Below, piece after piece: positions 1-60,237 of a stretch of 64,000 nucleotides of DNA. This stretch comes from Minisyncoccota bacterium (GTDB lineage Bacteria; Patescibacteriota; Minisyncoccia; Phycocordibacterales; JBAYGS01). Position numbers and translations under genes: made by a program. The notes under the pieces were generated by a model that worked only from the letters and a program-made list of their open reading frames with translations, was not told where the DNA came from and did not search any database. The stretch is taken from the NCBI GenBank assembly GCA_041666545.1, contig JBAYGS010000001.1, positions 153,942 to 217,941 on the forward strand, read 5' to 3'. How positions within the stretch are numbered: the stretch's first letter is position 1; the number at the start of each line of letters is the position of its first letter.

Positions 1-48
1 AAAGCAGTTTGCTCACTCATCCCGAAAGTCTCCGCTTCGCTCCGCTTG

Positions 49-119
49 TCGGGATGCCGGGATTTGAACCCGGATCGTACGAACCCGAATCGTACATACT
101 ACCGTTATACTACATCCCG
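49..119 (-). tRNA. tRNA-Pro (anticodon CGG)
   Basis: Cloverleaf folded by hand on the minus strand. Acceptor stem is 7 bp, CGGGATG/CATCCCG, with C1:G72 and discriminator A, which is typical of bacterial tRNA-Pro. Anticodon stem is TACGA/TCGTA with loop TTCGGGT (U33, anticodon CGG, G37). T-arm is CCGGG-TTCAAAT-CCCGG. CCA is not encoded. The D-stem is weak, with two G-U pairs. Confidence 0.75.
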
Positions 120-2877: not shown

Positions 2878-4572
2878 CTATTCTGAGGACGGCAGACCTT
2901 GAGCCTTGCGAATTTTTAGATCAAGTCGATTCAAGGCACTTAAAATCGCCCTAATCGAAGCGTTTTCGCTGTTGGTATCCGTACCTGCTCCCCAGCAACG
3001 CCAACCTTTGGAATTTTCAATCTGAACATAGGCAATGGCCTCGGCACTCTCGCCGACACCCAGAGAATGTTCGTGGTAAGAGACAACAGTAAAATAATCC
3101 GCCAGGGCTTGAGTTAGCAGAGCTTGAACAAAGGCCGAGATGGGACCGTTGCCAGCACCGGTAACCCACTCCACTTTGTAGTCGTGAAGAATTTCGGCGT
3201 TGCAGACGCATTCGCCGTCACCTGTCGATTTAAACTTAACGAGCGACCAGGGATAATCGAGTGCAATGTATTCCTTATAAAACATCTCTCTCAATTCGGT
3301 CGGCGTCACTTCGCGCCCCAGAGAATCTACTTGGTCATTTGCGATGGGTCCAAACTCCCTCTGCATTTCCTTCGGCAAAAGTATGCCGAATTCTTTTTCC
3401 AAGAGGTAGGCAACCCCGCCTTTGCCGGATTGACTATTAACCCGAATGACTTCCCGATATTGCCGACCGATATCTTGCGGATCAATCGGTAAATACGGAA
3501 CATCCCAAACTATTCGACCATCCGCTTCGCGCTCCGCCAGGGCCTTTTTGATGGCGTCCTGATGAGAGCCACTGAAAGCCGTAAGTACCAGCTCACCCGA
3601 AAATGGCTGACGAGGCGGGACAAGCATGCCCGTACACTGTTCGCAAACCTGGCGAATCGCGCCAAGTTCACTGAAGTCCAAACCAGGGTCGATGCCGTGC
3701 ATCAAGAGGTTTAAGGCCAAGACCACAATGTCCAAATTGCCCGTCCGCTCGCCATTTCCGAAAAGCGTACCCTCGACTCTGTCGGCGCCTGCCAACAATC
3801 CCAACTCGGTAGCGGCAATACCCGTACCCCGATCATTATGTGTGTGCAAACTGATAATCAAAGACTCGCGCCATTTAATATTTGTGCACATCCACTCAAT
3901 CTGGTCGGCGTAAACATTCGGCATCGCAACCTCGACGGTCGACGGTAGGTTTAGAATCATCTTCCGCTCCGGTGTCGGCTGCCAAACATCCATGACCGCC
4001 TCAGCAATTTCTTTTGAGAATTCAACTTCAGTGGCTGAAAAACTTTCAGGAGAATACTGGAGCGTCACCTGGGTCCCAACAAGCAACCCCAACCGATTTT
4101 TTATCAGTTCTGCGCCATAGACAGCAAGCGCCTTGATTTCGGCCTTGGACTTGCAGAAAACAACCCGGCGCTGCGCCGGAGAAGTTGAGTTATACAGATG
4201 AATGATAACCCGCTTGGCCCCAACGAGCGCTTTGAAAGTGGCGTCAATCAAATCTTCGCGGGCCTGAACCAACACCTGAATGGTCACATCATCGGGGATA
4301 TGTCCGCCTTCGATTAGAAGCCGCGTGAAGCGATACTCGGTGTTCGAAGCAGATGGAAAACCGATTTCAATTTCTTTGAAACCAAGCCTAACGAGTAACT
4401 GAAACATCGCCAGTTTCTGGGCGACATTCATCGGCACCGGAAGAGCTTGATTGCCATCGCGCAGATCTACACTCGCCCAGATTGGCGCCCGTGTCAAAAC
4501 TCGGGACGGCCACTTGCGGTCAGGTAAGACAATAACAGGAAAAGACGCGTACTTGCCAGGTTTAATTTTCAT
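2878..4572 (-). CDS. leuA: 2-isopropylmalate synthase, long (LeuA1/actinobacterial-type) form
   Basis: RAPIWASVDLRDGNQAL, FPSASNTEYRF, HTHNDRGTGIAA and GNGERTGN match LeuA motifs and the C-terminal regulatory domain. Start is most likely the ATG at 4572 (MKIKPGKY). The ORF extends to a TTG at 4596. Confidence 0.85.
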   Translation of the reverse strand: MKIKPGKYASFPVIVLPDRKWPSRVLTRAPIWASVDLRDGNQALPVPMNVAQKLAMFQLLVRLGFKEIEIGFPSASNTEYRFTRLLIEGGHIPDDVTIQVLVQAREDLIDATFKALVGAKRVIIHLYNSTSPAQRRVVFCKSKAEIKALAVYGAELIKNRLGLLVGTQVTLQYSPESFSATEVEFSKEIAEAVMDVWQPTPERKMILNLPSTVEVAMPNVYADQIEWMCTNIKWRESLIISLHTHNDRGTGIAATELGLLAGADRVEGTLFGNGERTGNLDIVVLALNLLMHGIDPGLDFSELGAIRQVCEQCTGMLVPPRQPFSGELVLTAFSGSHQDAIKKALAEREADGRIVWDVPYLPIDPQDIGRQYREVIRVNSQSGKGGVAYLLEKEFGILLPKEMQREFGPIANDQVDSLGREVTPTELREMFYKEYIALDYPWSLVKFKSTGDGECVCNAEILHDYKVEWVTGAGNGPISAFVQALLTQALADYFTVVSYHEHSLGVGESAEAIAYVQIENSKGWRCWGAGTDTNSENASIRAILSALNRLDLKIRKAQGLPSSE

Positions 4573-4596
4573 AACAAGGAGTGGTTTCGGATACAA

Positions 4597-4906
4597 TTAT
4601 GTTGTTTTTCAAGGAACAGCCCCCCACTTTTTATCGAGACTCTAGTCTAGACAAAAATCAGCGTCTTCGGGTGAAGAGCTGACTTGTGTTCACAATCTAC
4701 CTTAATTCTCCTTGTCTACATTAACTAGATTTTGAATACGAGCAAACTCTCCACCGTAGGGAGGAGCAAGAGACCCGAGAGCAAACTCTTGTGACTCGTA
4801 TTATTCATAGCGACCATATTACTTCGACACTGAAACAATGTCAAGAAATCTGCAGCCAACTTCAATCGGACATAGCCTAACCTTAACGGGATGATATAAT
4901 ATTCCC
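4597..4906 (-). promoter_or_regulatory. ~310 nt leuA 5' leader with an attenuator-like hairpin plus U-run
   Basis: A long non-coding leader lies upstream of leuA. In mRNA sense there is a stem (cagcucuucacccgaagacgcug) followed by auuuuug about 90 nt before the start. Inverted repeats aatacgag/ctcgtatt and a direct repeat gagcaaactct are also present. Confidence 0.35.
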
Positions 4907-5827
4907 ATGATTAATATCTACACCTACAAAAAACTCAAATGGATTGACTTGGAGTCTCCGACCAAGGATGAAATTCGTTCGATTATGGAAGAGTACCGGA
5001 TTCACCCCCTAATCGCCGATGAATTGATCAATCCCAGCCTCAAGCAAAAGGTTGATCTCTATAAGGATTTCATTTATCTAATTCTCCACTTCCCCGCCCT
5101 GAAGCACAGTCACCAGAAAACTGCCGGCGCCAACCAGGAAATTGATTTCGTCATCGGCAAAGATGTCATTATCACCTCGCACTACGACACAGTCGACCCT
5201 CTCCATGAATTTGCAAAAATTTTCGAGGTCAACAGCATTCTCGACAAAAGTCATATTGGCGACCATGCCGGCTTCATTTTCTATCACATGATGAAAAGCA
5301 TCTATCGCGCCAGCACCAATGAGTTGGAGGCGATTGAAGACTCGCTCAAAGAAATCGAGACCCAGATTTTTGCCGGCGAAGAGCGCGCCATGGTTTTCGC
5401 TCTTTCCAAAATCAGCCGAAATTTGCTGAATTTCAAAACCACGATTTCACTCCATAACGACATTCTTCAATCCTTCGAAGCAGCCGGTAAAATATTTTTC
5501 GCTGGCGAATTTGAGCACTATCTTCAAGCAATCAGCAGTGAATATTTCAAAGTCGACAAGATTATCAAAAGCCACATCGAGGCTTTGGCCGAATTGCGCG
5601 AGACGAACAATTCCCTTCTTTCTACAAAGCAAAATGAAATTATGACAACCCTCACGGTCATGGCCTTCATCATCTTGCCTTTATCGTTCATTTCTTCGCT
5701 CTACAGCATGAACACCTCCTTTTGGCCCTTCGTTGGCGTGAAAAATGACTTCTGGATTATCTCCGGCACGATGGCAATAATCGGCATAATTATTTTCCTG
5801 GCCTTCAAGCGGAAACGCTGGCTGTAG
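4907..5827 (+). CDS. CorA-family divalent cation transporter (SMN in place of GMN)
   Basis: The C-terminus has two TM helices with YSMNTSFWPF between them, giving CorA topology. A TATAAT lies 6 nt upstream of the ATG, suggesting a leaderless-like transcript. Confidence 0.65.
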   Translation: MINIYTYKKLKWIDLESPTKDEIRSIMEEYRIHPLIADELINPSLKQKVDLYKDFIYLILHFPALKHSHQKTAGANQEIDFVIGKDVIITSHYDTVDPLHEFAKIFEVNSILDKSHIGDHAGFIFYHMMKSIYRASTNELEAIEDSLKEIETQIFAGEERAMVFALSKISRNLLNFKTTISLHNDILQSFEAAGKIFFAGEFEHYLQAISSEYFKVDKIIKSHIEALAELRETNNSLLSTKQNEIMTTLTVMAFIILPLSFISSLYSMNTSFWPFVGVKNDFWIISGTMAIIGIIIFLAFKRKRWL

Positions 5828-5901
5828 GCGCGAGGCGCGCCAGAATTAGGAATTGGAAATTATGAATTCAAATTCCTCACTTAATTCATAACCCATAATT
5901 C

Positions 5902-7275
5902 ATGATTCAACTCTACAACACTCTGACCAAGCAAAAGGAAAATTTCGCCCCGATAAAAGCAGGTGAAGTTTCGATGTATCACTGCGGACCGACGGTCTAC
6001 AACTATGCGCACCTGGGCAACTTACGCGCTTATGTTTTTGCCGATTTGCTGAGGCGAGTTTTCGAATATGAAAATTTCAAGGTTAAACAAGTCGTGAACA
6101 TCACCGATGTCGGCCAGCTTGTAAGTGACGCCGACTCCGGCGAGGATAAGATGACTAAAGCCCTGAAACGCGAAGGCAAGCCTCTGACCTTGGAGGCTAT
6201 GGCTGAATTGGCCAATTTTTACACCCAAGCCTTCGTCTCTGACCTCAGAGCTTTGAACATTCTCACTCCCGACTATCTGCCAAAAGCCAGCGAGCACATT
6301 AATGACGATATTGAGGTCATCAAAAAATTGGAGACTAAGGGCTTCACTTATAAAACCTCCGATGGAATTTATTTTGCTGTCGGCAAACTGCCAACTTACG
6401 GAAAGCTGGGTGGCTTAAATCAGGAAAATAAGCAGGCGCGAATTTCCGCCAATCTGGAAAAGCAGGACCAACGCGACTTCACCCTCTGGAAATTCGATGG
6501 CCAAATCGGGTGGGAAAGTCCTTGGGGCAAAGGCTTCCCCGGTTGGCACATCGAGTGCTCCGCCATGTCGGAAAAATATTTGGGGCAACCTTTTGACATT
6601 CACACCGGCGGCATCGACCACATTCCGGTTCACCACAATAACGAAATTGCTCAAAGCGAAGCGGCTAATGACAAACCACTCGCTAACTTTTGGTTGCACA
6701 GCGCTTTTCTCACCTTGGCTGCCGGCGAAAAGATGGCCAAGTCAGAAGATAATTTTTTAACTATCGATTCGCTCCTCAAGCTCAGGACCAGTCCCCTCGC
6801 CTACCGCTATCTGCTGCTTACCACTCACTATCGAAGTCCGCTAAATTTTTCTGTGCCGGTCGTAACAGCCTCCGAAGTTGCTCTCGGCCGTTTACGAAAT
6901 TTTGTCTCCGGGATCAAATCTGCCGGAAAAATTGAACCGAATTACCAAAAACAATTCAACGAATTTATTTCTGACGATTTAGACCTGCCAAAAGCTCTGG
7001 CCCTGGCTTGGGAATTAGTTAAAGATGACAAAATTTCTGCACCGGATAAAAAGGCCACCTTGCTTGATTTTGATCGAGTTTTTGGGCTCACTTTAGATAG
7101 AGTTGAAACTTTTGAGATCCCGACAGCTATAGCGGAGCTTGTCACAGAGAGACAAGCCGCGCGGGAGAAATCCGACTGGAGTTTGGCGGATCAATTGCGC
7201 AAGCAAATCGAGGATCAAGGTTTCGAAGTTTTGGACTCCAAATCCGGCCAGGAAATTAAAAAGGCCAATCGCTAG
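5902..7275 (+). CDS. cysS: cysteinyl-tRNA synthetase
   Basis: HCGPTVYNYAHLGN (HIGH-type motif), KMAKS (KMSKS motif) and the class I catalytic core are present. Confidence 0.95.
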   Translation: MIQLYNTLTKQKENFAPIKAGEVSMYHCGPTVYNYAHLGNLRAYVFADLLRRVFEYENFKVKQVVNITDVGQLVSDADSGEDKMTKALKREGKPLTLEAMAELANFYTQAFVSDLRALNILTPDYLPKASEHINDDIEVIKKLETKGFTYKTSDGIYFAVGKLPTYGKLGGLNQENKQARISANLEKQDQRDFTLWKFDGQIGWESPWGKGFPGWHIECSAMSEKYLGQPFDIHTGGIDHIPVHHNNEIAQSEAANDKPLANFWLHSAFLTLAAGEKMAKSEDNFLTIDSLLKLRTSPLAYRYLLLTTHYRSPLNFSVPVVTASEVALGRLRNFVSGIKSAGKIEPNYQKQFNEFISDDLDLPKALALAWELVKDDKISAPDKKATLLDFDRVFGLTLDRVETFEIPTAIAELVTERQAAREKSDWSLADQLRKQIEDQGFEVLDSKSGQEIKKANR

Positions 7276-10447: not shown

Positions 10448-11545
10448 TTACCCCTCCAGTTCATCACTCTCCGGCTTAGCTAGGAGCGCCGGCTCAATTT
10501 TGGCCGAAACGCCGGTAATTTTTAGGATGTCTTTATCAATTTTTTTAAATTCCTTACCGGAAATATTGTACTGATTTACCGCCGTGGAGAGAGCGTTGCC
10601 AAGCTTATTGTGGTACTCATCATAGCTCTTTAAATGCTTCATTAGGCCATCAACATTCTTCACAATCTCTTTGGCCTGCTCCTCGATTTGCATCGCTTTT
10701 AGGCCCTGTAAAACGGTCTGCAGATAGGCCAAAAACGAGGTCGGCGAAACAATTATCACTTTGTACTTCCCCGCCGCCCGTTGAATTAGGTTTTCCGTAT
10801 CGTCGGCTAAAGCGCCGATTTTATTGATTAACAGATCATAGTAAATCGCCTCGTGCGGAATAAACATAAAAGCAAAGTCCATCGTCCCCTCGCCCGGCCT
10901 GATATATTTCGAAGTCTCAACAATTCGATTTTTTAAATCATTGACGAAAATTTTTTCCAGTTTTTCCTTTTCCGCCGGATTTCTCTCTTCAACTAAACGG
11001 TTGTAGTTTTCCAAGGAAAACTTTGAGTCAACCGGAATAATTTTATCCTTTACCCGCACAATCGCATCGACAATCTCGCCATTTTTAAAAGCATACTGCA
11101 TTTGATAATTCCCCGGAGGCAAAACATTTTTCAAAAGGGTTTCTAGATAGTACTCCCCCAAAATCCCCCGCTGTTTTGGATTTTTCAAAATATCTTGAAG
11201 CGACTGCAGTTGGTCAGCAAAAGTCACCATGTTTTTGCCGGTCTCCTCAACTCTCGCCACCTTGTCGGCGATGTTGGAAAGCTCCTTTAAAAATTGCCCT
11301 GTCACATTTCGGCTTTCACTTAATTGCATCTTTACAGAATCATTCATTTGCCTGGTCCCCTCGCCAATCTTGGCATCGACGGTGCGAGACAATTCGTTGA
11401 CCTGCTGAAGCAAAAGCTTCATACCATTAGTTTCCGCCTCCTCATTCGCACCCGCTCGGCTATTAAATTTCATAATTAAAAAAATAACCGCGCCAATTAG
11501 GATCGCGACCAAAACCGTAAGAATAATCAAAAGTGTGTCTGACAT
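10448..11545 (-). CDS. rmuC: DNA recombination protein RmuC
   Basis: N-terminal TM helix, long coiled-coil and RmuC C-terminal nuclease-like domain (FMFIPHEAIYYDL...IVSPTSFLAYLQTV). Confidence 0.75.
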   Translation of the reverse strand: MSDTLLIILTVLVAILIGAVIFLIMKFNSRAGANEEAETNGMKLLLQQVNELSRTVDAKIGEGTRQMNDSVKMQLSESRNVTGQFLKELSNIADKVARVEETGKNMVTFADQLQSLQDILKNPKQRGILGEYYLETLLKNVLPPGNYQMQYAFKNGEIVDAIVRVKDKIIPVDSKFSLENYNRLVEERNPAEKEKLEKIFVNDLKNRIVETSKYIRPGEGTMDFAFMFIPHEAIYYDLLINKIGALADDTENLIQRAAGKYKVIIVSPTSFLAYLQTVLQGLKAMQIEEQAKEIVKNVDGLMKHLKSYDEYHNKLGNALSTAVNQYNISGKEFKKIDKDILKITGVSAKIEPALLAKPESDELEG

Positions 11546-26524: not shown

Positions 26525-27158
26525 TGTATTCTTCGGGAGTATTCTCGTCTAACCAACGATCGATTTTGTTATGAACAAAAATATAACTGGCCACACCCAA
26601 GATAAACATTACAAAAACGAAAATTCCATGTCGAACATTTTCAAATTTTGAAACCAGGACCAAAAATTGGCTATGGAAAATATAGCCGATGCCGGCATAA
26701 AGCAGAGTGTAAAGAACAATTGCGAAAAGATTGTAAATTTGAAATAGGTACGGTTTCATTTTCAGAGTACCGGCCATAATCGGGCCAACGAAACGGAAGA
26801 GAGGCAAAAACTTGGCCACGAAAACAAATTTCTTGAGGTGGGCGCGGACAAACTCCAGATTGCGGGTAATTTTTACCTTACCGGCATAGTAGCGAAGGGT
26901 CTTGATATGCTTATTGTTGCGCCTAGCCAAGCCGAACAAAATCGTATCGCTCAAAATCATTGCCACGACACAGACCAAGACTGCCGCGTAAAGGTTGAGT
27001 GAGCCGGTACTACTCACATAGCCCGCCGTAATTAGAACAATCTCCTCCGGGAAGAAAGTAATACCGCCCGAAAAAATCGCACTCAAAAAGATACCTAAGT
27101 AAGAAAGGTGTCCGGCGAAGGTTCCAATATCCGATAACTGTTCCGGCCCAAAACTCAT
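26517..27158 (-). CDS. DedA/VTT (SNARE-associated) family membrane protein
   Basis: DedA-type topology and motif (GGITFFPEE...AGYV; FLPLFRFVGPIMAG). Confidence 0.7.
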   Translation of the reverse strand: MSFGPEQLSDIGTFAGHLSYLGIFLSAIFSGGITFFPEEIVLITAGYVSSTGSLNLYAAVLVCVVAMILSDTILFGLARRNNKHIKTLRYYAGKVKITRNLEFVRAHLKKFVFVAKFLPLFRFVGPIMAGTLKMKPYLFQIYNLFAIVLYTLLYAGIGYIFHSQFLVLVSKFENVRHGIFVFVMFILGVASYIFVHNKIDRWLDENTPEEYND

Positions 27159-27164
27159 AGGCTA

Positions 27165-27285
27165 TTATGATAGCATCCCGTTAGAGATAGGTCATCCCGG
27201 ATGACCGTCACGTGGGGATAACCACTTTATTTTGAGAGAGTATGTAAAATTTGGAGCCGCAATAATGTACAGAACAAAAATATCT
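27165..27285 (+). repeat. MITE-like element, copy 1
   Basis: Perfect 15 bp terminal inverted repeats ATCCCGTTAGAGATA / TATCTCTAACGGGAT. Subterminal palindrome GGTCATCCcGGATGACC. Confidence 0.7.
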
Positions 27286-27323
27286 CTAACGGGATAGCAC
27301 ATTCGAACCCTACCCTGTCCGCA

Positions 27324-35166: not shown

Positions 35167-36927
35167 TTACCGCTTTTTGAGGAGCGACTCAAGCCGGTCG
35201 ATGTTTTTCGAGACCGATCTCAAGCCCTCAACAAAGAAAGCCGGATCAGATACATCAATACCAATTGACCGGAAAATGTCTTCAGGACTTTGACTGCCAC
35301 CGGCGCTTAGGAACTGTTTAATCTTGGCCAGGTAGCCTTTATCGGCCCGGTATCTTTCGTAGAGCGCTTTGCTGACCAACTGGCCGAAAGCGTAGGAGTA
35401 AACATAGAAAAAGCGTCTGATATGGGACCAATAGACGAAGAAGTAGCCGTCGTCCTCGGTAAGCTCGACCGCCGAACCCAAATATTTTTTCATTTCTGAA
35501 TTCATTAGAGCCGCAATCTCTTCTTTAGTTAAAGCGCCCTTCGCCCTAATCTGATTATGAAGCGCCAATTCAAAATTGAAACAGGCAATCTGACGCCAAA
35601 TAGTTTGAATGTCATCGTTGATCCGATCATGTAAGGCGATAACCTTCTCAGCCTCGGTCAAACGGCTGAAGATTTCCTCAAAAGCCAGATTTTCAAAAAA
35701 GGTGCTGGCAACTTCAGCCGAGGCAATCGTGTAATCGCGATAAAGTGGTGGTTGGTTTTTACGGCTGTATTCACCGTGAATTGCATGACCCATCTCGTGT
35801 GCCAAGGTCATCACCGAGTCGGCCGTGTCCACATGATTAAGGAGCACGAAAGTCGGACCGATTTGGTTGCTCGAGCAATAGGCTCCGCCAGTTTTGCCGA
35901 CTTTAGGAAAAACATCAATTTGCCCGGCTTCAAGATAATCCGAAAAAATTCTGGCAAACTCCGGATCCGCCGCGCCAAAAGATTTCTTAATCAAGTCCAC
36001 CCCATCGGCAAATGCAAATTTATGGTTAATGTGGCCGATTGAAACATTGCGGTCGGCATAAGTCAGTTTTTTAGCCTTCAATAGTTTGGCCTTTAAGCGA
36101 TAAAAGCGATGACTAATTGAAGCGTGGTCATTTACGGCCGCCACTAAGGATTCTACGGTTTTCTCCTCATTTTCATAGGAGAGAAGCGTACCTGAATAAG
36201 GTTTTTTAAAGTGGCGCAATTCATCGTTAATTTTCTTATCGATGACAATCGCGTTGAGTTCGGCCTCGGCAAAGCTACTCAAATCTTTCAGTCTGGCCAT
36301 AATCTCGCGGTGCAGGAGCACTCTTTCACCTCCTGGCAAATCGGCCACCAAATTTATGGCCTGGCCGATCGACAATTTCTTTTTGCCGAAGGTGATTGAA
36401 TTCCTGCCCAAAATTTTCTCATTGCCGGCTACCCACAGACTCTGACTCGGCTGGGCTTTTAGACTGAGAATTTTTTCCTCCGGCTCGGAGAGATGATGCT
36501 TGGACCATCGGAAAACTGTTTTGAGATAATACTTGAATGGGGCGAGCTGTTTTGATTTCAAAAACTGCTTTTGTAGGGTCGGAGAAATATTCTCCAGTGC
36601 CAACCGGAAAAATAAAAGCGAGTTGTCAGCTTTGGTCAGGCGGTCCAGCAAAAGATTGGACTTGGCCTCTGCCTCATGGTCGTGAGCATTTAGATCCTGG
36701 CGATAACCCAAATAGTTTAAAGCCCAAGAAGATCGCAAACTGTCAAAAAGATACCCGTAATCGGTCAGTGCTTTAAAGAGCTCACCTTCGTCAGTTGTAT
36801 ATGATTTGCTATTTCTATATTTCTTAGCAAAAAGGCCGTAGGCCCTTTCCAGAGCTTTAATATCTTGTTCAATTTTCGGGTCCAAGATGGATTTGTATAG
36901 CAAATCAAGATTCCAAGTGGTTTTCAT
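35167..36927 (-). CDS. pepF: oligoendopeptidase F (M3 family)
   Basis: HEMGHAIH zinc motif and M3B family-wide similarity. Confidence 0.85.
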   Translation of the reverse strand: MKTTWNLDLLYKSILDPKIEQDIKALERAYGLFAKKYRNSKSYTTDEGELFKALTDYGYLFDSLRSSWALNYLGYRQDLNAHDHEAEAKSNLLLDRLTKADNSLLFFRLALENISPTLQKQFLKSKQLAPFKYYLKTVFRWSKHHLSEPEEKILSLKAQPSQSLWVAGNEKILGRNSITFGKKKLSIGQAINLVADLPGGERVLLHREIMARLKDLSSFAEAELNAIVIDKKINDELRHFKKPYSGTLLSYENEEKTVESLVAAVNDHASISHRFYRLKAKLLKAKKLTYADRNVSIGHINHKFAFADGVDLIKKSFGAADPEFARIFSDYLEAGQIDVFPKVGKTGGAYCSSNQIGPTFVLLNHVDTADSVMTLAHEMGHAIHGEYSRKNQPPLYRDYTIASAEVASTFFENLAFEEIFSRLTEAEKVIALHDRINDDIQTIWRQIACFNFELALHNQIRAKGALTKEEIAALMNSEMKKYLGSAVELTEDDGYFFVYWSHIRRFFYVYSYAFGQLVSKALYERYRADKGYLAKIKQFLSAGGSQSPEDIFRSIGIDVSDPAFFVEGLRSVSKNIDRLESLLKKR

Positions 36928-37042
36928 CCCGTTAGAAATTTTTAGTTAATAACTTAGTGTTACTTAGTCTAGCAGATTCACTCGCAAAGGCCACCATAAT
37001 TTAAAGTATTACGGTCATTCTCTATGACCTATTTCTAACGGA
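36925..37042 (-). repeat. MITE-like element, copy 2 (inverted orientation, slightly diverged termini)
   Basis: Termini CATCCCGTTAGAAAT / ATTTCTAACGGAA. Palindrome GGTCATTCtCTATGACC next to the right end. The element abuts or overlaps the pepF start codon. Confidence 0.6.
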
Positions 37043-37091
37043 ATTCATCCTCTAAATATAACAGCTATTAATATTTTTAAAAGCCAATCTT

Positions 37092-57642: not shown

Positions 57643-57761
57643 ATCCCGTTAGAGATTGGTCATTCAGAATGACCAGGAATGTCCAACCGCAATGACACGA
57701 TAAAAATAGTGCGCAGGCGAAGAATATTGACGAGTGACAAAACAACAGATCTCTAACGGGA
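57643..57761 (+). repeat. MITE-like element, copy 3
   Basis: Termini TCCCGTTAGAGAT / ATCTCTAACGGGA. Palindrome GGTCATTCaGAATGACC. Confidence 0.7.
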
Positions 57762-57772
57762 CAGGCTTCAGG

Positions 57773-58492
57773 TTATTGTTTTGGTTGATTCGTTATTTGG
57801 TTATTGGTACTCATGGCTACCCAATCGAGAAGCATTTTGATGGACGGCGCCCGATCGCTCAGATAATTCTTGGCTTGTAAAATCGCCGATAAAGTTTTTT
57901 GGTTTTTGACTACCGACTCCCCCGCCAAATTCTCTTCCAGCAAATTCAAAAATCTGATCGCCAACTGGGCATCTTTTTGCTCAGCCATTTTTTTACTAAT
58001 CTCAAATTTCTGAGCCAAATTGGCTTTCAGAAATTTTTGGACTTCGGGCGACAAATCTTCATCCTTCGTGCCCACGAAAGGCACAATCATCAATCTGGAC
58101 TTAAAGGTTGGCAGCAATCTTTCGACTGAAGGCAAAATCAGAAAAAAATGGGTTTCCCGTGTCGGCTCCTCGAAAACCTTTAGAAGCGCGCTCTGCCCCT
58201 CCCAAGTAATCGACGGGGTTTTCACAATAATTATTTTCTTACCGCCGCCGGCCGATTTTAACAGTTGCCGATTGATGAGCTCCCGACTTTCCTCCACACC
58301 AAAACTCTCGAAATCGGCCTGCCAAAAATCCGGGTTGCCAACTGTCTCGATTTTTAATTCTCCCTCCAAAAATAGTTTGAGATTCTCAAAAATTTCCGGA
58401 GCCGGACCATAAAGGCAGTAGGCGTGGTGAAGCGGTAGGTCCAAAACCAGCCGGGACTTAACCGATTTGTTCGATTGGTTTCGGTTTGTCAT
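57773..58492 (-). CDS. holB: DNA polymerase III delta-prime-like subunit (short; Walker A degenerate)
   Basis: HHAYCLYGPA, LLKVFEEPTRETHFFLIL and SRLMIV motifs. Start chosen at the ATG at 58492 (MTNRNQ). The longer ORF-track start overlaps mreB. Confidence 0.65.
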   Translation of the reverse strand: MTNRNQSNKSVKSRLVLDLPLHHAYCLYGPAPEIFENLKLFLEGELKIETVGNPDFWQADFESFGVEESRELINRQLLKSAGGGKKIIIVKTPSITWEGQSALLKVFEEPTRETHFFLILPSVERLLPTFKSRLMIVPFVGTKDEDLSPEVQKFLKANLAQKFEISKKMAEQKDAQLAIRFLNLLEENLAGESVVKNQKTLSAILQAKNYLSDRAPSIKMLLDWVAMSTNNQITNQPKQ

Positions 58493-58502
58493 TTTCAAAG
58501 AA

Positions 58503-59516
58503 TTAGCGCTTGGCGATAATCGATTTCTTGTAGGTATCCAGGTGTTCGAGCGCAATACCGGTGCCTTTGGCAACGCAGTAGAGTGCGTCGTCGGCCAAAA
58601 TGGCCTTCACGCCAGTTCGGCGAAAAACCAGCTCCGGCAAATTGCGTAATTGCGAAGACCCGCCGGTCATAATAATGCCCCGGTCGATAATGTCAGCAGC
58701 AAGTTCCGGCGGAGTCTCCTGCAACACATCCTTGATAGCCTTAATCATGTCGCGCAGTTCCTTGGCAATCGCTTTCACGATTTCATTCGTCTTAATTTCC
58801 GTCGAACGAGGCAGGCCCGAAAGAAAATCTCGGCCTTTGATGACAAGGGCGAGCTCCTCCTCAACCAAAACTGCCGAGCCAATTTTAATTTTAATATCTT
58901 CAGCCGTCTGATCACCGATGGCCAAATTGAAAGTTTTTTTAATGTAGTCGGTGATGGCGTAGTCGATTCGGTTGCCGGCACACTTGACCGAAGTTGAGGA
59001 CACGATGCCACCAAGAGAGATCACCGCCACATCAGTGGTGCCTCCACCAATATCAACAATCATGTGGCCGATTGGTTCGTAAATTGGAATTCCCGCCCCG
59101 ATTGCCGCCAAAATCGGCTCCTTCACAACATAAGCATTTTTGGCGCCAGCTTTAATTGCCGCTTCAATAACCGCGCGCCTTTCAGTCGAGGTGACACCAG
59201 CCGGCACAGAGACCATTACTTCCGGTCGGAAAAAGTTGAAGGGGCCGAGAGCTTTGTCGATAAAATAACGGAGCATCGCTTCTGTCACGCGATAATCGGC
59301 AATCACACCATCTTTCATTGGTCGGTAAGCAATAATCGACTCCGGAGTTTTGCCGATCATATTTTTGGCCTCAACTCCGACCGCCAAAATTTTATTATCT
59401 TGCTCCGAAACCGCCACTACCGACGGCTCCATTAGCACAATCCCTTTGCCCGGCACAAAAACCAAGGTGTTGGCTGTACCCAAGTCAATTCCAAGTTTTT
59501 TGGAGAAAAATGACAC
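58503..59516 (-). CDS. mreB: rod shape-determining protein MreB
   Basis: LGIDLGTANTLVF, DIGGGTTDVAVISLGG and the actin-fold MreB family. Confidence 0.95.
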   Translation of the reverse strand: MSFFSKKLGIDLGTANTLVFVPGKGIVLMEPSVVAVSEQDNKILAVGVEAKNMIGKTPESIIAYRPMKDGVIADYRVTEAMLRYFIDKALGPFNFFRPEVMVSVPAGVTSTERRAVIEAAIKAGAKNAYVVKEPILAAIGAGIPIYEPIGHMIVDIGGGTTDVAVISLGGIVSSTSVKCAGNRIDYAITDYIKKTFNLAIGDQTAEDIKIKIGSAVLVEEELALVIKGRDFLSGLPRSTEIKTNEIVKAIAKELRDMIKAIKDVLQETPPELAADIIDRGIIMTGGSSQLRNLPELVFRRTGVKAILADDALYCVAKGTGIALEHLDTYKKSIIAKR

Positions 59517-59559: not shown

Positions 59560-59577
59560 AGAGAATTTTAATACTTG

Positions 59578-59699
59578 ACCCCGTTAGAGATAGGTCGTCT
59601 TCTAAAGACGACCGTGGCTACTCTCAGCATCTATCAAACTGTGTAAAGACTTTAATTACCCAGCCACGGCCATTCCTAACAACAAATCTCTAACGGGGT
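59578..59699 (+). repeat. MITE-like element, copy 4
   Basis: 14 bp termini ACCCCGTTAGAGAT / ATCTCTAACGGGGT. Palindrome GGTCGTCTTctaAAGACGACC. An internal second inverted repeat ccgtggct/agccacgg is also present. Confidence 0.7.
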
Positions 59700-59757
59700 T
59701 GACAACGGCCCGCAAATATCGATAATCGCTTTAGACAACCTGAACCAAAGGAAGCTT

Positions 59758-60237
59758 ATGACAGAAATAGCGCCGCGATCCCGACTGTTCGGTATACCAA
59801 TCTGGCACCACCTCCATAGTGGTAAATGCCAAGTCAAAACTCTTGACTTGGCAAACAAACAGCTGGTCATTGAGGCCAGCGTCGCCAACTTAACAATTCG
59901 ACTTCGCCCTGATGCCACCCCAGCTTACCGTTGGCTGGTCACTTGGCTGGTCAGGCACAGTCGGGAGGAATTTGACACTGGCACCCGAATTTTCAGTGAC
60001 AAAGACATGAAGGGGGCATTTTTGACGGACGGTCAGATAGAATTCGGCGAAATGCTCATCACCGAGCACGGAGGCAGTTCCGCCCACCAAGGGCATTACC
60101 TGCGTTTCAGAAAGTACCTCAATATTCCGGGTCCCGGCACCGGATATGACGGGGACCCGAACATTTCGATCGAAGTGGATGAAGCCATCAAGTCTGCTGT
60201 CCAACAGCTACTCGAAAGTGCCCGCCCAAAACAGTAA
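59758..60237 (+). CDS. hypothetical protein (159 aa), GC-richer
   Basis: Followed by a terminator. No recognised family. Confidence 0.45.
   Translation: MTEIAPRSRLFGIPIWHHLHSGKCQVKTLDLANKQLVIEASVANLTIRLRPDATPAYRWLVTWLVRHSREEFDTGTRIFSDKDMKGAFLTDGQIEFGEMLITEHGGSSAHQGHYLRFRKYLNIPGPGTGYDGDPNISIEVDEAIKSAVQQLLESARPKQ

Follow-up and report, generated by a model that had tools for sequence, protein, structure and literature searches.

We consider it likely that the four short inverted-repeat elements found in the window (the whole 64-kb stretch of DNA analysed here) are MITEs derived from a mobile element of about 275 bp, which encodes a GIY-YIG nuclease, inserts at start codons and is spread over several phyla. 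The members of this family share one architecture, duplicate a short piece of target DNA, lie at start or stop codons with a bias in orientation and occur as near-identical copies at many loci, and the nuclease gene of the long form shows purifying selection.

Four elements with inverted termini in the window

We scanned the window with the terminal motif CCGTTAGARAT, allowing at most one mismatch and using 100 shuffled windows as a control. This gave eight matches, all of them exact and arranged as four inverted pairs with a spacing of 113-116 bp, against a mean of 2.0 matches in the shuffled windows, none of which (0/100) reached eight. The four elements with inverted termini that an earlier note had described were thereby recovered, and a looser scan of the window (up to three mismatches per terminus) yielded no extra credible terminus pair. 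The elements and their associated features are as follows.

Element c1, 27176-27294, forward (ORF-equivalent) on the minus strand: 119 bp, between the dinB stop and the dedA start
c1 subterminal hairpin, 27190-27206: GGTCATCC c GGATGACC, 1 nt inside the repeat, which is the family-wide position
c1 flanking direct repeat TAGCA, 27171-27175 (left) and 27295-27299 (right): 5 bp, atypical against the family norm of 4 bp
Element c2, 36927-37043, forward on the plus strand: 117 bp, abutting the pepF ATG (36927-36925, minus strand)
c2 subterminal hairpin, 37013-37029: GGTCAT tctct ATGACC, at the right end
c2 target-site duplication TTCA (TGAA on the pepF strand), 36923-36926 and 37044-37047: 4 bp
Element c3, 57644-57761, forward on the minus strand: 118 bp, beginning 11 nt past the stop codon of the holB-like gene
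c3 subterminal hairpin, 57658-57674: GGTCATTC a GAATGACC
Element c4, 59579-59698, forward on the minus strand: 120 bp, with CC/GG-type ends
c4 subterminal hairpin, 59593-59613: GGTCGTCTT cta AAGACGACC
c4 target-site duplication TTGA, 59575-59578 and 59699-59702: 4 bp

Terminal inverted repeats (YCCCGTTAGARAT...ATYTCTAACGGGR) are present in all four copies and measure 13-14 bp, with one mismatch in c2, so that the 13-15 bp given before are slightly reduced; those of c1 read TCCCGTTAGAGAT (27176-27188) and ATCTCTAACGGGA (27282-27294). The limits of c2 to c4 are close to those first proposed, and c1, which had been placed at 27165-27285, lies about 10 nt higher. Each copy contains a stem-loop with arms of 6-9 bp that begins 1-2 nt inside one terminus; all four palindromes of the earlier note are found at the positions listed above, and c2 is inverted as it had said, its hairpin being at the right end. 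The A-rich tract reported before the right terminus is seen in the four window copies and is not general in the family. The interiors of the copies had been called unrelated, and indeed they do not align to one another. At 117-120 bp the elements are short, and c1, c2 and c4 are interrupted in all reading frames. The neighbouring genes are those named previously, encoding DedA/VTT, DinB (DNA polymerase IV), PepF, a histidine kinase, a HolB-like protein and MreB.

When folded as single strands, all four copies (4/4) formed a terminal stem plus the hairpin, with z-scores from -2.6 to -7.3. Searches against Rfam in gathering mode detected tRNA only, and at E <= 1 there was no match over all four copies; as no copy matched a covariance model, a known Rfam RNA family was discarded as an identity for the elements. 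The sole RNA gene that Rfam and ARAGORN identified in the window is a tRNA-Pro (anticodon CGG; 48-119, minus strand). Neither a GIY-YIG gene nor a full-length element was detected in the 64-kb window, where tblastn gave a chance match in rmuC (10766-10945). The homologies that the earlier note had named as grounds for rejecting a repeat family, to a coding fragment or a known non-coding RNA, did not appear: none of the four window copies (0/4) carries a GIY-YIG remnant, and Rfam matched none of them.

The termini recur in two size classes across several phyla

The termini were then sought in other genomes, as had been proposed, and recur in hundreds of them. A scan of one genome per species for CCGTTAGARAT-N85-115-ATYTCTAACGG returned short elements of about 115 bp at 120 loci or more, and a scan of metagenomes for the same termini 240-270 bp apart returned long elements of about 275 bp, likewise at no fewer than 120 loci. 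Among 80 titles listed from the genome scan, 47 were Patescibacteria (including 16 Saccharibacteria), 8 Omnitrophota, 8 Planctomycetota, 3 Deltaproteobacteria/Thermodesulfobacteriota/Syntrophorhabdus, 1 Elusimicrobia and 1 Clostridia. Over the 246 loci collected (1.58 Mb), the spacing of adjacent termini is bimodal, with 135 pairs at 100-150 bp and 114 pairs at 250-300 bp, these peaks being the two size classes for which the scans had searched. An additional 34 pairs lie 50-100 bp apart in the same loci, so still shorter derivatives or nested fragments exist as well. Terminus pairs more than 320 bp apart number only four, and all of these enclose ordinary host genes. Short and long copies share a contig at three loci (L007, L053 and L105). 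No match to either form was obtained in 2.9 million viral contigs, and a tblastn search with the nuclease protein described below found no match in plasmid and phage collections.

Short elements may also be clustered locally, as in a Planctomycetota locus (L030) with copies at 1137-1257 and 1329-1445, 71 bp apart, and in a Wolfebacteria contig (L006) with three copies within 2.5 kb (3803-3918, 5900-6016 and 6161-6277). One short subfamily has extended terminal pairing, CCGTTAGAAATCGCGGACGC...GCGTCCGCG-TCCT-ATTTCTAACGG; its members (L014, L028, L037, L042, L070, L087, L096 and similar loci) come mostly from Saccharibacteria and other Patescibacteria. In this subfamily the interior motif ATAGGGTTCGG is conserved, and some short interiors are therefore not free to vary.

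Insertion duplicates four base pairs

With the element limits set at YC-CCGTTAG...CTAACGG-GR, the outer 4 bp were identical at both ends in 84 of 125 short elements, whereas shuffling of partners gave 11.8 on average and never more than 21. After removal of duplicate loci, exact 4-bp direct repeats flanked 88 of 129 short elements (control 11.8) and 46 of 114 long elements (control 8.7). Other registers or lengths of the flanking repeat gave almost nothing in the short elements, and inverted flanking 4-mers were not enriched. The target-site duplications for which the earlier note had suggested a search are hence strongly enriched across the family. Their spectrum is led by TGAA/TTCA (38), TAAA/TTTA (14), TGGA/TCCA (9) and TGAG/CTCA (7), with numerous rare 4-mers behind them; since the rare ones also match on both sides, the repeats represent a true target duplication and not a fixed motif. 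In the window the duplication is 4 bp at c2 and c4 and 5 bp at c1; c3 has none, its flanks reading ATCA and CAGG.

The long copies with CC/GG-type ends mostly lack a clean duplication (exact in 14 of 58). One CC/GG-end subfamily occupies various sites within the 3' ends of ORF6N-type genes (...FDAIRQLM..PE..KKRIGF...), namely at L146, L162, L166, L176, L185, L187, L190, L197, L204, L217, L221, L223, L230 and L239. The flanks of this subfamily are not simple duplications, with TTTA or TTCA often on the left and TGAA or TAAA on the right, and look remodelled; three of its loci (L187, L190 and L230) hold remnants of additional insertions in the same ORF6N-type gene.

The long form encodes a GIY-YIG nuclease framed by the repeats

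The first coding copies came to light at L053 and L105, where termini 274-276 bp apart surround an ORF that matches PF01541 (GIY-YIG) with E = 1e-16 and 61.5 bits against a cut-off of 22.6. An ORF with the GIY-YIG motif is present in 100 of 118 long elements. It is the only gene of the long element and encodes a nuclease of 86-95 aa of the UPF0213 type, whose nearest relatives among solved structures are 1zg2 and 1ywl, both UPF0213 proteins, at low identity (E = 3e-5). Conservation is seen at Y, YTG, R, H and YYE, columns that include the catalytic residues (two Tyr, Arg, His and Glu).

Where long elements end in TC/GA, the left repeat (CCC GTT AGA GAT) and the duplicated host ATG both share the reading frame of the ORF, so that the nuclease begins M-N-P-V-R-D (MNPVRD...). 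The ORF crosses the right repeat (TCT CTA ACG GGA) and stops at the TGA of the downstream duplication, which overlaps the rebuilt ATG of the host gene. Both ends of the protein, PVRD/N at its start and LSLTG at its close, are consequently encoded by the repeats. Of the 38 long TC/GA-type elements (out of 43) in which a host ORF of at least 60 aa runs from the rebuilt codon, 25 also have the captured start in frame. At L134, L158, L193, L203 and L236 the captured ATG is the only one in the ORF, and the captured start alone can therefore initiate. The same ends recur among protein relatives: in the best 120 of 4,295 clusters, 85 are exactly 95 aa long, 80 start with M-x-PVR-D/N and 94 end with FLSLTG. 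At L244, the nuclease gene (2501-2788) and the next gene (2785-) share an ATGA overlap.

The protein family comprises 8,916 clusters (50% identity) at E <= 1e-3 and 1,139 at E <= 1e-10. Since most nuclease clusters are singletons at 90% identity, the element may, in many lineages, be seldom active or have been active only long ago. In one 118-aa protein (P0257) the GIY-YIG ORF is broken in frame by a stretch reading PVRGRSPRGGRSCAFGEVASNGV, which is a miniature element nested within a coding element.

Elements are placed at gene boundaries and rebuild start codons

Reconstructed empty sites have the form xxxA/TGAA/xxx (slashes set off the duplicated bases), in which A/TG is a start codon. After insertion, the host gene regains an ATG or GTG, made up of the last base of the element (A or G) and the TG of the duplication. 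In 73 of 125 short elements this rebuilt start leads into an ORF of at least 60 aa, and in a second count, of the 121 short elements with sufficient flank, 72 abut a start codon. A long incoming ORF ends within a few bases of 61 of these 121, with peaks where the first three bases of the duplication supply the stop (15) and at a TAG inside the left repeat (17). Only 24 of the 121 abut neither kind of codon, the other 97 lying against a start codon or the stop of an incoming ORF.

Long TC/GA-type elements show the orientation bias most strongly: a host ORF of at least 60 aa runs from the rebuilt codon in 38 of 43, and all 38 are co-oriented with the element (38/38), none being divergent. The bias is weaker in short elements at start codons, where 43 are forward and 14, including c2, are reversed. 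Among 38 forward short elements, the mini-ORF running from the captured ATG is open throughout in 14, against 4.0 expected from shuffled interiors, and 12 of these 14 stop at a TAA inside the right repeat, 4 nt ahead of the host ATG. Going by these reading frames, the excess of open mini-ORFs would reflect selection for translational coupling. At L053, the longest ORF of a glycosyl/sugar-transferase-like host gene (4166-5473, minus strand) starts MISNGM..., its first five residues coming from the repeat of the element, and insertions can therefore mislead the annotation of start codons.

In the window, the A of the pepF ATG is base 36927, the terminal base of c2; as c2 is forward on the plus strand and pepF lies on the minus strand, the element is reversed relative to the gene. 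PepF orthologues across Paceibacterota start MKTTWNL, identical to the start of PepF in the window, and judged by this N-terminus c2 sits on the authentic pepF start. The reconstructed empty site of c2 reads ...TTTAGAGGA/TGAA/AACCACT, giving the empty pepF junction TATTTAGAGGATGAAAACCACT. An actual empty site, which the earlier note had hoped to see in relatives, was not found for c2: the three contigs encoding an identical PepF all carry it (3/3) in the same orientation, the c2 locus being identical in the three assemblies, and the nearest other PepF orthologue is just 57% identical.

Element c1 precedes the dedA ATG by 18 nt. When c1 and one copy of its 5-bp repeat are removed, a 7-codon mini-ORF (27153-27175 plus 27295-27302, minus strand) is obtained that reads ATG TGC TAT CAT AAT AGC CTA TGA and whose TGA overlaps the dedA ATG. 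As its removal restores this mini-ORF, c1 may also have inserted just past a start codon, here that of a putative leader peptide. The intergenic region that contains c4 separates mreB (minus strand) from a divergent ORF at 59758 (plus strand). A promoter-like sequence, TTGACA-16 nt-GATAAT (11/12 matches), occupies 59699-59726 on the plus strand, and its first four bases are the right-hand c4 duplication. The insertion split the region directly upstream of the -35 box and left the box intact; because the right TTGA copy begins the TTGACA box, the promoter-like site is intact despite c4. The longest ORF of the holB-like gene near c3 (57773-58573, minus strand) overlaps the 3' end of mreB (58503-59516, minus strand) by 71 nt, and the TTG start of this longest ORF is probably too far upstream.

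Short inverted repeats around some 100 bp, located just upstream of genes and seen in both orientations, are also what would be expected of invertible promoter switches or of recombination sites (invertons, attC-like) acted on by a site-specific recombinase. Such a nature is very improbable here: the motifs run GTTAGAG...CTCTAAC, in the opposite order to RYYYAAC...GTTRRRY of attC sites, the copies lie dispersed and form no arrays, 4-bp direct repeats flank them, a nuclease-coding version exists, and c2 has the same orientation on all three contigs. Integron attC sites in particular were ruled out by motif order, dispersal and target duplications.

Dispersed copies, selection on the nuclease and no transposase between the termini at the loci scanned

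Within one subfamily, 14 long copies share 88-97% identity over 253 nt and have unrelated flanks, and the short copies at L078, L079, L089 and L113 are likewise near-identical to one another in unrelated flanks. Across the ORFs of the 14 long copies, the median dN/dS is 0.155, with a dS of 0.41; by this measure the nuclease ORF is shown to be under purifying selection in dispersed copies. We did not find one individual nuclease, P0029, in several contexts; all contigs read had a single conserved context.

The earlier note had left the choice between a non-autonomous transposable element and a REP-like element. The recurrent termini, the enriched 4-bp duplications, the coding version and the near-identical copies in unrelated flanks together uphold the mobile-element (MITE) reading, and the features of REP/BIME sequences are lacking. 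Between the termini, no transposase-bearing unit was present in the 1.58 Mb of loci (246 loci, and not genome-wide), and within these loci a classical IS with a DDE, HUH, serine or tyrosine transposase was accordingly rejected.

The short elements could still be MITEs moved by an unlinked classical transposase, for example of the DDE type, with the GIY-YIG gene being a passenger or a homing-type settler. This would account for the terminal repeats and the duplication of fixed length, generally regarded as a classical DDE signature, and would be compatible both with DNA joining not being known for GIY-YIG enzymes and with the lack of a GIY-YIG element in the 64-kb window. Yet we judge it unlikely, given that the termini fall into two spacing classes with just four pairs beyond 320 bp, none of them enclosing a transposase (1.58 Mb), that the N- and C-termini of the nuclease are encoded by the repeats, so that the ORF is built into them, and that the nuclease is under purifying selection in dispersed copies.

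The hairpin as a probable link between the short and the long form

An exact 6-bp stem located 1 nt from the repeat core is present in 62 of 130 short elements (control 3.7) and has 22 distinct arm sequences. As read from the arms, the hairpin is maintained by compensatory change. Both arms can be found in the long element about 170 nt apart: at L105, the proximal arm ACGGAAACGACTTAAG codes for the conserved DLRKRLK segment and the distal arm CTTAAGTCGTTTTCT for NRLSRFL, directly before the right repeat. Given this distance between the arms, the short form corresponds to the long form minus the loop of a long-range stem. Two short elements (L034 and L054) still code for the GIY-YIG N-terminus. 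These are the only coding remnants in 126 short interiors, the other 124 being devoid of any GIY-YIG trace, so that an origin by deletion rests on the termini, the position of the hairpin and these two intermediates.

The strong covariation of the stem, folds that are more stable than those of shuffled sequences, a location in transcribed gene junctions and the enrichment of open upstream mini-ORFs, which suggests an effect at the mRNA level, would also suit elements that are primarily structured RNAs (5'-UTR cis-regulators or small RNAs) with the DNA repeats as a by-product. We hold this to be quite improbable, however, since target-site duplication is a signature of DNA insertion, in the closing helix both arms keep their sequence and do not covary, the elements occur in both orientations to genes (43 forward, 14 reverse), a protein-coding version exists and Rfam gave no match even at E <= 1. 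An RNA role may well exist in addition to mobility, which would not explain the origin of the elements.

Comparison with known systems

The Correia elements of Neisseria, the enterobacterial ERIC/IRU sequences and the palindromic elements of Rickettsia are non-coding, multi-copy MITEs of 100-150 bp. Bacterial MITEs have terminal inverted repeats and a short target duplication and are located at gene boundaries or in transcripts, and their repeats can fold into a long stem. The window copies resemble them in size, non-coding state, terminal repeats, duplication and location at gene boundaries, and can be classed as MITEs on a working definition. To our knowledge, known MITEs derive from insertion sequences with DDE or other classical transposases and are confined to one genus or family, whereas here the sole coding relative is a GIY-YIG element and the termini are common to several phyla. 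A further difference from bacterial MITEs is the preference for start and stop codons as targets, the start codon being rebuilt by the element itself.

With the T4 seg and I-TevI-type genes, the long form has in common a small selfish GIY-YIG gene between or at the ends of host genes. GIY-YIG homing genes have no terminal repeats or duplication, are directed to a single cognate allele via recombinational repair and possess a DNA-binding domain, while the ORF described here encodes nothing but the catalytic domain (about 90 aa), is bounded by repeats and is found at many unrelated loci with 4-bp duplications. A free-standing homing endonuclease gene was ruled out by these terminal repeats, duplications and unrelated loci. 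In size and single-domain build the nuclease is like the UPF0213 / YhbQ-YazA proteins (1zg2, 1ywl), which, as far as we know, have been described merely as hypothetical and in no repeat-bounded mobile context.

REP/BIME sequences with RAYT (TnpA-REP) offer a parallel as short palindromic extragenic repeats that are spread by a small dedicated nuclease-type enzyme and in which structure outweighs interior sequence. They differ from the present element in being single palindromes of 20-40 nt that carry a GTAG head and lack terminal repeats and duplications, and RAYT is an HUH/Y1 enzyme. A REP/BIME identity was rejected on account of the pair of terminal repeats 115 bp apart with a separate hairpin, and of GIY-YIG as the sole associated protein. 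Finally, in rRNA genes of CPR bacteria, GIY-YIG ORFs were described in non-intron insertions and judged to lie outside homing spread (PMC11270868). These insertions resemble the present family in host clade and in having GIY-YIG ORFs outside introns; the parts of that report considered here describe for them no terminal repeats, duplications, start-codon targeting or miniature derivatives.

Full-text searches of the literature yielded no description of the parent element of about 275 bp, even when queried with the terminal sequences themselves, and the parent GIY-YIG element seems to be undescribed.

A proposed mechanism of insertion and expression

Insertion duplicates a 4-bp target, with a preference for TGAA within ATGAA, which makes the element land on a start codon. 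We propose that the nuclease ORF is then started by the upstream copy of the host ATG and uses the expression signals of the host gene. The ATG or GTG of that gene is rebuilt from the A or G that ends the element and from the downstream TG. The nuclease stop, either the TGA of the duplication or a TAA in the right repeat, overlaps or abuts the host start and would thereby allow translation of the host gene by coupling; we infer that such coupling operates at the junction of element and host. Short copies retain only the parts taken to act in cis, namely both terminal repeats and the stem beside the right-hand repeat, a stem that in the long form closes the distal two-thirds of the ORF, and they were presumably moved in trans.

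The GIY-YIG nuclease itself would, by this model, perform or trigger insertion. Taken to its full extent, the proposal is that the 86-95 aa protein is the mobilising enzyme of an autonomous element of about 275 bp and that the element represents a new mechanistic class of transposon, which we put forward tentatively and with rather less than even confidence. GIY-YIG nucleases are, as far as we know, hydrolytic enzymes for which no DNA-joining activity is known, and a complete transposase of about 90 aa would be unprecedented. Joining could possibly be achieved by a 4-nt staggered cut followed by host ligation, or by repair copying primed on 4-5-bp microhomology. Because the UPF0213 proteins are related to the Slx1 nuclease domain, of which we take them to be the bacterial relatives, structure-specific cleavage of an extruded cruciform might, by analogy, be a third route.

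Implications

If the nuclease drives movement, a GIY-YIG enzyme would join the short list of enzymes that move DNA transposons, and the element would be the smallest self-mobilising DNA element known in bacteria, lowering the known minimum size of autonomous elements. It would be a start-codon specialist that borrows the promoter, ribosome-binding site and ATG of its host gene and returns translation through the overlap of stop and start. Capture of the start codon together with the ATGA overlap would be a compact way to express a selfish gene harmlessly in tiny, gene-dense genomes. Thousands of Patescibacteria proteins annotated as "GIY-YIG nuclease family protein" and having the ends MNPVRD... 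and ...FLSLTG would be revealed as mobile elements, and the start codons of host genes beside the elements could be annotated correctly. The elements would, moreover, mark gene flow among Patescibacteria, Omnitrophota and Planctomycetota.
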